From: Candidatus Latescibacterota bacterium
GTDB lineage: Bacteria > Latescibacterota > UBA2968 > UBA8231
Length of the DNA: 64,000 nt
Reading direction: 5' to 3'
Assembly: GCA_965261395.1 (NCBI GenBank)
Contig: OZ253462.1
Coordinates: 4,736,001-4,800,000 of the forward strand
The translations under genes and the position numbers were made by a program. Shown one piece after another: positions 5,833 through 34,062 of this stretch. Within the stretch, counting starts at the first letter, position 1; each line of letters opens with the position of its first letter. The notes below the pieces were generated by a model. The model saw nothing but the letters and a program-made list of their open reading frames with translations, did no database searches and was not told where the DNA came from.

Positions 5833-6849
5833 CTAGAATTCTTCCGCCAGTGGATTGTCCGCTTTTTGGTCGATCTCAATGTCGGCGTACGGACTCAGGT
5901 CCATGCCCCAGCTAAGATTGTTCTCCTCGAGTATTTTTTCCAACTCGTTGAGCGATTTGCGGCCGAAGTTGCGATACTGAAGCATCTCGGCCTCCGTGCG
6001 CGATACCAAGTCCCTGAGATGGGTGATCCCTGCGGCTTTGAGGCAGTTGGCCGAGCGCACCGTCAACTCAATCTCTTCGACGGGCGTTTGCAAGAGCTGG
6101 GCTATTTTCTTGGCCTCCTCGTCAACTTCCTTTTCCTCGATGCCTTCGGGCTCTTCTATAAAATGAATAAAAAGGCTCAGGTGTTCGGTCAGGATCCGAG
6201 CGGCCTGGGACATGGCGTCTTCGGGATGCACGGAGCCATCGGTCCAGACTTCCATAATCAACTTGTCGTAGTCGGTTCGCCGTCCGACGCGTGCGTTCTC
6301 GATCTCGTAGTGGACCTTGAGGATCGGCGAATAGTTCGTATCGAGCGGAACAGCGCCTATAGGCTGATCGGGGATTTTGTTCTCCTCGGCGAACTGGTAG
6401 CCGCGACCGCAGCCAACCATCAGTTCCATTTTCAGGGAGGCCCCTTTATCCAAGGTGGCGATGTGCTGGTCGGGATTCATCACCTCGACGCTGGAGTCCA
6501 CTTCTAGGTCCTTGGCCACCAAGGCTCCTTCTGTCGTGCGCTCGACGCGCAAGACGCGATCCTCCTCGCCACTATAGCGGATCGCCACTTCCTTGAAGTT
6601 GCGCACGATCTCCGGCACGTCCTCGCGCACCCCGACAATCGTGGAAAACTCGTGATGCACGCCTTCGATATTGACTTGCTTGATCGCCGCTCCTTGGATA
6701 AAGGACGACAATACGCGGCGCAGCGCGTGCCCTATAGAGACGCCAAAACCGCGCTCGAGCGGCTGGACGATAAACATGCCATACGTCTCGCTGAGACTTT
6801 CTTTTTCGACCTCGGCCAGTCTCGGCATCTGGAGACCTTCTAATTTCAT
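5833..6849 (-). CDS. rpoA: RNA polymerase alpha subunit
   Basis: PLERGFG...[27 protein letters not shown]. Confidence 0.98.
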
Positions 6850-7951: not shown

Positions 7952-8332
7952 CTACTTGACGGGGGCCTTTTTCTTACCGGCAATGGCTCGCCGCGGCCCC
8001 TTGCGCGTACGGGCATTGGTCTTGGTGCGCTGGCCGTTGGCCGGCAGCCCGCGGCGATGCCGCAAACCCCGATAGCAGCCGATATCCATCAGCCGCTTGA
8101 CATTCATGGTGGTTTCGCCGCGCAGACTACCTTCGACCTTGTGGCTGACCTCAATGATCGAGCGCAAACTGTTGACTTGGTCTTCGCTCAACTCGTTGAT
8201 CCGAGTCTGAGAGTCAATCCTCGCCTGGGCAGCGATGCGATTGGCCATCGTGTGCCCAATGCCAAAGATATAGGTCAATGCGATGGCGACCCGCTTGTCG
8301 CGGGGTAAATCTACACCTGCTATGCGCGCCAT
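7952..8332 (-). CDS. rpsM: 30S ribosomal protein S13
   Basis: [30 protein letters not shown]; start corrected. Confidence 0.98.
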
Positions 8333-8343
8333 AGGGTTATTCC

Positions 8344-8460
8344 TCAGCCTTGTCTCTGCTTGTGGCGGGGATTGCGCTTGCATATAACGCGCACGACCCC
8401 TTGCCGACGGACGATCTTGCACTCGTTACAGCGCTTGCTGACGGATGCTCTAACTTTCAC
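8344..8460 (-). CDS. rpmJ: 50S ribosomal protein L36 (Zn type)
   Basis: Hand translation, GTG start: [38 protein letters not shown]. Confidence 0.97.
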
Positions 8461-8492: not shown

Positions 8493-9836
8493 CTAGCCGC
8501 GGCGTCCCTGGATCTTGCCCCGCTTCATAAATCCCTCGTAGTGGCGAGTCATTAGCTGGGACTCCAACTGCTGCAAGGTGTCTAAAGCCACGCCGACGAC
8601 GATCAAAAGCCCTGTACCACCAAAAAATTGGGCAAAAGAAGGAGCCACGTTGAATTGCCTCGTGATGAAGAAGGGAAAAATCGCCACCATAGCGAGGGCA
8701 ATAGAACCCGGCAGGGTAATGCGCGTCATAATGCCATCAATGTACTGGGCGGTCCGGGGACCGGGGCGGACGCCCGGGATGAATCCCCCGTGCTTTTTCA
8801 TGTTGTCAGAGAGCTGATTGGGATCCATGACGATGGCAGTATAAAAATAACAAAAGAAGATGATCATTAGCCCATAGACGAACCAATAAAACATGGATTC
8901 GGTCGAGAAAAACGAACCAATCGCCAGCATGAATTCATGGCCTGGGAACATCTGAGTGATCGTGCCGGGCAGAAACATGATCGACTGGGCAAATATGATC
9001 GGAATCACGCCCGCCGTGTTGATCCGCAGCGGAATGTGCGTGGTCTGGCCGCCGTAAACCCGCCGCCCGACGACGCGCTTGGCGTACTGAACGGGAATTT
9101 TGCGCAAGCCCTGGGTCAGCAAGATCACAAAGGCCACTACGGCGAACATTAGCGCGACGAGGAAGATCTCTTCAATGATGTTTTTGCTGAAACCGCGATT
9201 GATGATAAAGAGCTTGTATTCCTGATTGATCGCATAGGGCAACTCGGCGATGATACCGATGAATATGATCAGGGAAATGCCGTTGCCAATGCCGCGCTCC
9301 GTGATCTGCTCACCCAACCACATAATAAAGATCGTACCAGTGGTGATCGTCAGCATAGTCGCCAGCGTAAAGCCAATGCCCGGGTCGGCAACGGCCGGCT
9401 GACCCGAGTACGGGGCCTTGATGCTGGTAATGAAGAAACTGACGCCGTAGGACTGAGCGGCCGCTAAAAAGACTGTGCCATAGCGCGTGTACTGAGTGAT
9501 TTTCTTGCGTCCCTCTTCGCCTTCGCGCTGCAGTTTCTGGAAGTGGGGAATAACCGCGCCCAGCAACTGCAAAATAATCGAGGCGCTGATATAGGGCATG
9601 ATGCCCAAAGCGAAGATCGTCCCGCGGGTAAAGGCACCACCCACAAACATGTCGTACAGCCCAAAAAGGGTGTTGCCGGCGCTTTCAAAGTACTCTTTGA
9701 GCACGACCAACTCGACGCCGGGGACCGTGATCTGACCACCGATGCGATAGACGATCAAAAGCCCTAAGGTGAAGAGGATGCGACGCCGCAAATCGGGAAT
9801 TTTGAAGCAGTTTTGAAAACTCTGCAGCAATTGCAT
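8493..9836 (-). CDS. secY: Preprotein translocase SecY
   Basis: [42 protein letters not shown]; TGATG overlap with rplO. Confidence 0.98.
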
Positions 9837-10285
9837 CAAATTACCTCGGCCTGACCGCCCGCTTTGGCGATTTTCTCTGCTGCCGTAGCGGAGAATTTGT
9901 GCGCTTTGACCGTCAGGGACTGACTCAGTTCCCCTTCGCCTAGGACCTTCAGCAGTCCCGATGGCTTGGCGATTAAGCCGGCAGCAGCCATTTCCTCTGG
10001 CCCGACTTCTCCGCTGAGTCCCCTCTCTGCCAGATCTCGCAGATTGACAATCTGATAGATGGTTTTGAATTTGTGGTTGGAAAAACCCACCTTGGGAATG
10101 TGGCGGAACAGTGGTAGCGTACCGCCAGTGAACCCGATGCGGTTACCGCGCCTAGCACCGGACCTAGCCCGCTGACCTTTATGGCCTTTGCCCGCGGTTT
10201 TGCCCGTTCCCGAACCCGGTCCTTGCCCCAACCGCTTGCGGTCCCGCTTAGACCCCGGAGGGCATTTTATATTTTCTAGACGCAT
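9836..10285 (-). CDS. rplO: 50S ribosomal protein L15
   Basis: GSGTGKTAGKGHKGQRARSG, KVLGEG, KFSATA. Confidence 0.97.
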   Translation of the reverse strand: MRLENIKCPPGSKRDRKRLGQGPGSGTGKTAGKGHKGQRARSGARRGNRIGFTGGTLPLFRHIPKVGFSNHKFKTIYQIVNLRDLAERGLSGEVGPEEMAAAGLIAKPSGLLKVLGEGELSQSLTVKAHKFSATAAEKIAKAGGQAEVI

Positions 10286-16155: not shown

Positions 16156-16989
16156 CTACTGCGCCTTCCGTCGGCGTATGATCCACTGATTGCTTTGGTT
16201 TTTGCGCTTGCGCGTCTTGTACCCCTTGGTGGGCTTGCCCCAAGGAGTGACCGGGTGCCGTCCGCCCGAAGATCGGCCTTCGCCACCCCCATGCGGGTGG
16301 TCAACCGGATTCATAACTACGCCTCGCACCTTGGGCCTGCGCCCCAACCAACGGGAGCGACCAGCCTTGCCGACGACGATATTGGCGTGTTCTATATTAC
16401 CCACCTGCCCCAAGGTCGCCATGCACTGGACCAGCACTTCGCGATTCTCCCCCGAAGGCAGTCGCAACTGCGCCCGCCCGCTATCACGGCCGAGAAGCTG
16501 CACTTCAGCGCCCGCGCTGCGTGCTAGCTGACCGCCGCGGCCAGGATTGAGCTCGACATTATGAACCGTCGCTCCTAAGGGAATATTGGCCAACGGCAAG
16601 GCGTTGCCAACTTGGATTGGGGCATTGGGACCTGCGGAGATCTCGGCTCCGACCTTCAGGCCCAGAGGCGCGAGAATGTAGCGCTTGTCTCCATCGGCAT
16701 AGACGACAAGGGCAATAAATGCCGAGCGGTTGGGATCGTATTCGATCTCGGCGACCCGACCCGGTACACCGAGTTTGGTACGCTTGAAGTCGATGACGCG
16801 ATAGCGCCTCTTATGTCCCCCTCCGCGCCGACGCATGGTCATGCGGCCCTGATTGTTGCGCCCGCCCGACTTGCCAACGGCAGCAGCGAGCAAGGACTTC
16901 TCGGGCTTGCTGCGCGTTAGCTCCTCAAAGGAGTTGACCGTCTTGTAGCGCAACGTCGGGGTTGTGGGGCGAAATTTCTTGACTGCCAT
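16156..16989 (-). CDS. rplB: 50S ribosomal protein L2
   Basis: [28 protein letters not shown]. Confidence 0.99.
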
Positions 16990-17005: not shown

Positions 17006-17290
17006 CTAGATATTTTCAGCAAATTCAATGGAGTCGCCGGCCCGGAGCGTCACATAGGCCTTTTTCCAACCGGCACGCCGCCCTAGGTACATCCCTTGCC
17101 GCTTGGGCTTACTGGGGACTTTGATGGTGCGGACGGATTCAACCTTGACCGAAAAAATGGATTCTACTGCCTGGCGGATCTGGAGTTTGTTGGCCTTGGG
17201 ATGGACGCGAAAGGCGTATTTGTTGCCCTCGCGCAACATGGAGGCTTTTTCGGTAATCACTGGCTCCTGAATAATTGCTCGCGGGTTCAT
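17006..17290 (-). CDS. rplW: 50S ribosomal protein L23
   Basis: PVITEKA, ANKLQI, WKKAYVTL; start at MNP avoids overlap with rplD. Confidence 0.95.
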   Translation of the reverse strand: MNPRAIIQEPVITEKASMLREGNKYAFRVHPKANKLQIRQAVESIFSVKVESVRTIKVPSKPKRQGMYLGRRAGWKKAYVTLRAGDSIEFAENI

Positions 17291-17294
17291 CTTC

Positions 17295-17933
17295 TCAGCC
17301 CCTTTGGCCATGGGTTTCTACGAGCCGATCAAAGGCTTGGCGAGTAAACAAGACCACATCCGTTGCTAGCAAGTCATAGGTAGCTAGCGAACCGAGATGG
17401 GCAATTTTCACCTGGGGCAGATTGCGGCTCGATTTGATCAACACTGGGGAGCTTTCCACCGTGACGAACAGGACCTTGTGGTCTTTGAGACCGCACGCTT
17501 CAATAACCTTCTGAAAGGAACGGGTGCTGGGAGCGGGAAAGTCGAAGTCGGTGACGACCTTGATCTGCCCCTCCGTGCCTTTGAGCGTCAGTGCCGAGCG
17601 AAATGCCAGACGCTTGAGGGACTTGGGCACCTTGGAAGAATAAGAGCGGGGACGGGGACCAAAGGCCACGCCGCCACCGCGCACCAAAGGCGAGCGCAAC
17701 GAACCCCGACGCGCCCAACCCGTGCCTTTCTGGCGGTGGTGCTTCTTGCTCGTGCGGGCTATCTCGGACCGGGTCTTGGCCGAGGCCGTCCCCTGCCGCT
17801 GATTCGTTTGGTGGGCGACAACCGCTCGGTAGAGGGCGTATTCCGAAACCGCAGTACCGAACAAATCCTCGGGCAATTCGACTGAGCCGTTTGCTTGCCC
17901 TTCGCTGTTTAGCACTTCTACCTGCGCACCCAT
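17295..17933 (-). CDS. rplD: 50S ribosomal protein L4
   Basis: RQGTASAKTRSE, RQKGTG, GGGVAFGPRPR, SSRNLP. Confidence 0.97.
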   Translation of the reverse strand: MGAQVEVLNSEGQANGSVELPEDLFGTAVSEYALYRAVVAHQTNQRQGTASAKTRSEIARTSKKHHRQKGTGWARRGSLRSPLVRGGGVAFGPRPRSYSSKVPKSLKRLAFRSALTLKGTEGQIKVVTDFDFPAPSTRSFQKVIEACGLKDHKVLFVTVESSPVLIKSSRNLPQVKIAHLGSLATYDLLATDVVLFTRQAFDRLVETHGQRG

Positions 17934-17940
17934 GGTCCAA

Positions 17941-18249
17941 TCAAACCTTTATGTCAATGCCGATGCCCGCAGGCAAATCGAGCTTCATCAGTGCGTCCAC
18001 GGTCTGCGGCGTCGAATCGTAAATGTCGATGAGCCGCTTGTGGATGCGCGTCTCGAACTGCTCGCGCGATTTCTTGTCCACGTGTGGGGATCGCAGCACG
18101 GTGTATATGGTGCGAGCCGTCGGTAGCGGCACCGGGCCGGCGATGCGGGCCCCGCTCCGCTTGACCGTCTGGACTATCTCATCCACAGATTTGTCCAAAG
18201 CCATGTGGTCGTAGGCTTTGAGGCGAATGCGTATTCTGTCAACTGCCAC
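17941..18249 (-). CDS. rpsJ: 30S ribosomal protein S10
   Basis: [31 protein letters not shown]. Confidence 0.98.
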
Positions 18250-18279: not shown

Positions 18280-19470
<1,191 letters not shown>

Positions 19471-33619: not shown

Positions 33620-33695
33620 TGGCAGGGCAGACAGGACTTGAACCTGCAACCGCCGGTTTTGGAGACCGGAGCTCTACCAATTGAGCTACTGCCCT
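33620..33695 (-). tRNA. tRNA-Trp(CCA)
   Basis: AGGGCAGTAGCTCAATTGG...CTCCAAA...GGTTCAAGTCC...CCA cloverleaf, 76 nt. Confidence 0.97.
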
Positions 33696-33699
33696 ATGC

Positions 33700-33852
33700 C
33701 TAGCGGGCTTCCTTGTGGGCCGTGTGCTTGTGGCAAAAGCGGCAATATTTTTTGTACTCCACGCGGCTTGGCTGGCTTCGTCTATTTTTAGTTGTAGTGT
33801 AATTTTGCTGGCTGCATACTTCACATTCCAGCGTTATTTGATCTCTTGGCAT
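33700..33852 (-). CDS. rpmG: 50S ribosomal protein L33 (Zn type)
   Basis: Hand translation [50 protein letters not shown]. Confidence 0.96.
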
Positions 33853-33890
33853 CAGAATTTGTCGTGTTTAGATAGAAGCACTTAGGAAAG

Positions 33891-33966
<76 letters not shown>

Positions 33967-33985
33967 TGCTATTGTTTTGGCGATC

Positions 33986-34062
33986 TGGAGCGGGAAACGG
34001 GACTCGAACCCGCGACCCCGAGCTTGGAAGGCTCGCGCTCTAGCCAACTGAGCTATTCCCGC
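33986..34062 (-). tRNA. tRNA-Gly(TCC)
   Basis: GCGGGAATAGCTCAGTTGG...TTCCAA...GGTTCGAGTCC...CCA, 77 nt. Confidence 0.97.

Follow-up and report, generated by a model that had tools for sequence, protein, structure and literature searches.

The gene for ribosomal protein L3, rplC, is not lost from this Latescibacterota genome but relocated: its canonical position in the S10 operon, directly between rpsJ and rplD, is empty, and a single copy is found on the same strand, 79 kb upstream of rplD. The rpsJ-rplC-rplD adjacency is among the most stable in prokaryotes. The reading that we consider very likely is that rplC was cleanly removed from the operon and persists as a single full-length upstream gene with its own promoter, following a duplication and the loss of the operon copy, with vertical descent of the gene throughout.

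The window, a stretch of 64,000 nucleotides (G000:C1:4736001-4800000) from a single-contig genome of 6.55 Mb, carries the following genes and intervals around the junction and in the cluster downstream of it.

18280..19470, minus strand: tuf, encoding EF-Tu (Pfam GTP_EFTU, D2 and D3 domains), with a 30-nt gap to rpsJ
17941..18249, minus strand: rpsJ, encoding S10, 102 aa, intact (PF00338, 129 bits; NF001861, 159.4 bits against a cut-off of 85)
17934..17940, minus strand: rpsJ-rplD spacer read from the sequence, TTGGACC, 7 nt, the site of rplC in other bacteria
17295..17933, minus strand: rplD, encoding L4, 212 aa, intact (PF00573, 206.6 bits; TIGR03953, 207.9 bits against a cut-off of 130.1)
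17006..17311, minus strand: rplW, encoding L23 (Pfam match)
16156..16989, minus strand: rplB (Pfam match), the operon continuing normally past rplW
Window cluster: rpsS, rplV, rpsC, rplP and rpmC, open reading frames named by order and length only, not by profile scan
Window cluster, in this order: rpsQ (by NCBIfam), rplN, rplX, rplE, rpsH, rplF, rplR, rpsE, rplO, secY, rpsM, rpsK, rpsD, rpoA and rplQ

The gap of 7 bp that the initial annotation had reported from the rpsJ stop to the rplD start is exact at the level of the sequence, with the TGA of rpsJ at 17943-17941 and the ATG of rplD starting at 17933, and both genes are intact by Pfam and NCBIfam. Its observation that the window holds no L3-like open reading frame is borne out by a six-frame search of the whole genome with the Pfam Ribosomal_L3 model (E<=10), which gave no match within the window. 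The remaining S10-spc-alpha cluster is complete and in the usual gene order, rplC alone being missing after tuf; moreover, no terminator-like site was seen on the minus strand from rpsL to rplW, and no S10-leader RNA was detected in the window. Such leaders are described as having a narrow distribution, confined to Gammaproteobacteria (PMC3616713). Further along the cluster, secY (8493-9839) is almost directly followed by rpsM (open reading frame 7952-8422, model match from residue 33), so that adk, map and infA are absent between the two and a short rpmJ at most fits. Three tRNA genes occupy positions 33,623-34,062 of the window on the minus strand, upstream of the rpoBC region.

Outside the window, the same search, which the initial annotation had put forward as a check, returned one Ribosomal_L3 match above cut-off in the entire genome (G000:C1:4832874-4833230); a second match, at 516051-516185, scores 8.5 bits and is at chance level. 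The single locus comprises a gene together with what appear to be its own expression signals.

G000:C1:4832802-4833416 (L001:1426-2043), minus strand: relocated rplC, 205 aa (TIGR03625, L3_bact)
L001:2116-2088, minus strand: predicted rplC promoter, TTGCCC-N17-TAATTT, a sigma-70-like motif with a predicted start near L001:2081
Upstream of the ATG, minus strand: rplC Shine-Dalgarno sequence AAGGAG, a strong site
L001:1401-1364, minus strand: predicted intrinsic terminator of rplC, an 11-pair GC-rich hairpin (1401-1374) plus a T-run (TTTTTTT), 22 nt after the stop

The encoded protein scores 256.7 bits against TIGR03625 (cut-off 142.9), its residues 4-203 of 205 covering profile positions 2-202 of 202, and is thus an ordinary full-length bacterial uL3, present as the sole copy in the genome. 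Beside its gene are a GT9 heptosyltransferase-like gene in divergent orientation, a HinT-like histidine-triad gene in convergent orientation and a GT2 glycosyltransferase gene. The two properties that the initial annotation had inferred for L3, a precise relocation and a separate regulation, agree with this single upstream gene and its own promoter motif, Shine-Dalgarno site and terminator.

A gene dropped or misplaced during assembly or binning could in principle give the same picture, and the initial annotation had named an assembly artefact as possible. The collection holds 76 genomes of the order, which belong to one family and 18 genera. L3_bact matched 72 of them, the four misses being 58-86% complete, and rplD_bact and rpsJ_bact matched 73 of 76 each. 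In 72 of the 76, S10 and L4 were matched on the same contig, 53-106 nt apart (median 61), a figure that measures the gap between the two model matches as opposed to the sequence-level spacer and leaves no room for a gene of 0.6 kb; the remaining four are not evaluable, one (G007) having fragments at contig ends and three (G033, G082 and G085) being without an S10 or L4 match. All 15 genomes compared at the sequence level, from 13 genera, have an rpsJ-rplD spacer of 3-44 nt, and since the spacer sequence varies among genera, these count as independent observations. One L3 match in the order (G048:C66:35192-35785) contains a single in-frame TGA, for which sequencing error, a pseudogene or recoding could account.

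The new surroundings of rplC recur in the same manner. All 18 loci of the window's genus have the order GT9, rplC, HIT, in some cases followed by GT2, with S10, L4, L23 and EF-Tu absent nearby, and GT9 stands upstream of rplC in 12 of 12 further loci of the family. Among public records whose L3 is at least 67% identical, none of 53 has S10, L4, L23 or EF-Tu in its flanks (up to 6 kb), and in the same 53 GT9 or HIT adjoins L3 wherever the contig extends that far. The titles of these records designate them as Candidatus Latescibacterota or Gemmatimonadota MAGs. Public runs holding the rplC locus include sponge metagenomes, and the source bacterium is probably sponge-associated. The one junction recurs in 72 of 76 assemblies from the order, including many single-contig genomes, the spacers differ from genus to genus, and 53 of 53 public records have the one new context. 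Nothing was found in favour of an artefact, which is therefore excluded and given a negligible probability.

Beyond the order, the canonical arrangement tuf-rpsJ-rplC-rplD-rplW is found in three sister families of the class (12 of 12 loci and another 12 of 12 loci), in 19 of 19 genomes from nine further families in other classes of the phylum, and in other phyla at 26 of 27 loci, the remaining one being truncated by a contig end. The relocated state, being common to the whole order and absent from the sampled relatives outside it, thus arose once, on the stem leading to the order's ancestor. The initial annotation had taken an rplC between rpsJ and rplD in close relatives as the observation that would speak against it; this arrangement does exist, but only outside the order, and inside it the rpsJ-rplD adjacency holds in 72 of 76 genomes, so that the comparison dates the event and does not refute it. 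In five loci from other classes of the phylum (L161, L171, L172, L177 and L178), draft contigs have their first bases inside the tuf 3' end, immediately upstream of rpsJ, a pattern to be expected if assemblies break at two near-identical tuf copies.

The ancestor of the order could also have taken up a foreign rplC at the GT9/HinT site and later lost the copy in the operon, in line with the horizontally acquired L3 that the initial annotation had offered as one alternative. This was addressed by an L3 tree of 66 rows and 205 columns, including 27 outgroup rows, with which a quick version agrees, and by a quick tree of concatenated S10, L4 and L23 with 61 rows and 405 columns, from which out_L104 (in-frame stop) and four rows with missing genes had been dropped. 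The L3 tree supports the family at 100/99 and the three sister families together at 100/99; the family and its sister families form one side of a branch supported at 71/0 (71 ultrafast bootstrap, 0 SH-aLRT; recovered in 66% of 200 bootstrap trees). Both L3 trees make the L3 of the family sister to that of these three same-class families, and none of the rows from other phyla groups with it, no outgroup row being nested. The S10+L4+L23 tree agrees with this topology, its supports being 96 for the class and 100 for the family.

Sequence divergence gives a similar picture: the L3 of the window's genome is 46-55% identical to that of class relatives, which makes it no more divergent than L4 (41-48%) or L23 (47-55%). 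The points in favour of a foreign origin are the class node in the L3 tree, on which the matter turns and which is weak (71/0), and the best L3 identity outside the order, 55%, which is shared equally by class members and one MAG labelled Deltaproteobacteria. Against it stand the position of the family in both L3 trees, the identical topology of the S10+L4+L23 tree, the ordinary divergence of L3 and the lack of any mobile-element gene seen beside the relocated rplC. A horizontal replacement thus finds no support, and, the deciding node being weak, we hold it to be quite unlikely. The simplest reading of these sequence comparisons is that rplC would have descended vertically. Across the family, identity to the proteins of the window is 90-99% for S10 and only 47-89% for L4, and the family stem branch measures 0.60 in the S10+L4+L23 tree against 0.31-0.33 for L3; on that long stem, the rate of change seems to have been higher for L4 and L23 than for L3.

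Thirty-nine genomes of the order have L3 and L4 on a common contig, 28.9 kb to 1.35 Mb apart (median 45.9 kb), and by strand and coordinates L3 is upstream of L4 and co-oriented with it in 38 of these 39, G008 being the exception. The distance from rplC to rplD is 29-47 kb in the other genera and mostly 41-131 kb in the window's genus, where additional DNA has thus come to separate rplC from the rpoBC-str-S10 cluster. For the ancestor, a distance of about 30 kb is probable, with later growth in that genus. Two members of the window's genus, G008 and G006, have rplC 1.0 and 1.35 Mb from rplD, in G008 on the opposite strand, and these positions look like secondary rearrangements after the original move.

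Under the preferred reading of duplication followed by loss, a route also concluded by Brandis (PMC8046335) for single genes "deleted" from this cluster in Gammaproteobacteria and Bacilli, a second copy of rplC would have arisen about 30 kb upstream of the operon, either through a small ectopic duplication or through tandem duplication of a segment followed by reciprocal losses; the upstream copy would then have gained an independent promoter, after which the operon copy would have been deleted. Tandem duplication of a segment of about 30 kb ending in rplC, together with reciprocal losses, is a possible route that would explain why the gene is upstream, co-oriented and nearby. No two-copy L3 intermediate was found among the 76 genomes of the order, the double match in G031 consisting of two fragments at contig ends. 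Nor was an "empty" target site found: five genomes of the sister families have a HinT orthologue without GT9 or GT2 within 1.5 kb, and in these five the orthologue is far from the S10 cluster and has differing neighbours.

At its present site, flanked by the divergent GT9 gene and the convergent HinT gene, rplC should form a monocistronic unit, and the promoter predicted for it is conserved. Of 56 distinct upstream regions in the family, 55 contain the pattern TTGCnn-N17-TAnnnT, each of them exactly once, compared with a mean of 0.58 of 56 in mononucleotide shuffles; since the motif was read off the same sequences post hoc, this comparison is generous, its margin is nonetheless very large, and it amounts to consensus-level evidence. 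The single region without the motif has just 65 nt available. A strict sigma-70 scan missed the rplC promoter because its -10 element, TAATTT, matches three of six consensus positions. Between the -10 element and the ATG there are 43-152 nt across the family, the upper value belonging to L079 (CBDBIJ010000029.1), in which direct repeats like CTGAGTCAACTGACATA at about 5850-6000 lie between the promoter motif and the rplC start and stretch this distance to 152 nt.

Metatranscriptome contigs cover rplC in four of four runs from two studies. One study contributes the spans L001 1364-2068 and 1406-2056, the other 1042-2026 and 700-2026; these being assembled contigs, they attest presence in RNA libraries and not transcript ends, strand or level. 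One contig ends at 1364, the end of the terminator T-run, and none extends past 2068, positions that fit the terminator and the predicted start near 2081; in one study the RNA contig extends into the convergent HinT gene. The interval L001 2069-2423 is uncovered in all four runs, which fits a start downstream of the promoter, with the qualification that contig gaps are not evidence. On the preferred reading, the supply of L3 would now be set by its own promoter and ribosome-binding site instead of co-transcription with S10 and L4.

An alternative reading is that the move was itself selected, for dosage control of L3 or for an extra-ribosomal role, in place of being a neutral accident of duplication and loss. 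L3 acts early in 50S assembly. Across the 18 genera both the promoter motif and the context are retained, as selection would have it, but conservation of a promoter is expected anyway for an essential gene, and the protein itself is an unremarkable uL3. A structured or autoregulatory rplC leader was considered and rejected: 49 distinct leaders (from the predicted start to +30) have a mean z of +0.64 against mononucleotide shuffles, 0 of 49 falling below -2, and a search of L001 against Rfam (E<=1) was without a match. Adaptive uncoupling in this sense is, in our estimate, very unlikely. A related and broader conjecture, that rplC is the weak link of the S10 operon and that its order-wide exit with a private promoter was selected and not neutral, strikes us as a long shot; if true, the benefit would be own dosage control of L3 in slow-growing, host-associated bacteria.

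Even the rpsJ-rplC-rplD adjacency can be broken and stay broken through the diversification of a whole order. The relocation of rplC is a clean rare genomic change marking this order of Latescibacterota- or Gemmatimonadota-labelled, largely sponge and marine MAGs. It also has a practical side, in that methods expecting the ribosomal-protein block on one scaffold will meet L3 elsewhere: of the 68 genomes in the order with both L3 and L4, 29 have them on separate contigs. Finally, the order offers a natural case for how L3 stoichiometry holds without co-transcription.

Set beside the canonical S10 operon, the operon of the window has all genes except rplC, after tuf and in canonical order, and differs from it in that position 2 is without rplC, rpsJ and rplD being 7 nt apart here. 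A literature search, with most subscription journals outside its coverage, turned up no publication that treats rplC away from the S10 operon or Latescibacter together with rplC. An older survey of S10/spc/alpha organisation is that of Coenye and Vandamme (2005). The closest published comparison is Brandis 2021, which counts 48 single-gene exits from the cluster in 204 Gammaproteobacteria and Bacilli (PMC8046335). The genes analysed there are rplJL, rpmJ, rpsN and secY, and the source of the exited copies is given as new duplications or pre-existing homologues, not long-distance transfer (PMC8046335); the name rplC has 0 occurrences in its main text. Departure of a single gene from the S10 cluster is therefore a published kind of event, and the relocation of rplC is unusual yet not unprecedented and calls for no new mechanism. 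The events described in the main text of Brandis 2021 resemble the present one in that one essential gene is gone from an otherwise intact operon and is found as a single copy elsewhere in the chromosome; they differ from it in that here the gene is rplC, the phylum is another one, the change is fixed in a whole order and the new promoter is conserved.
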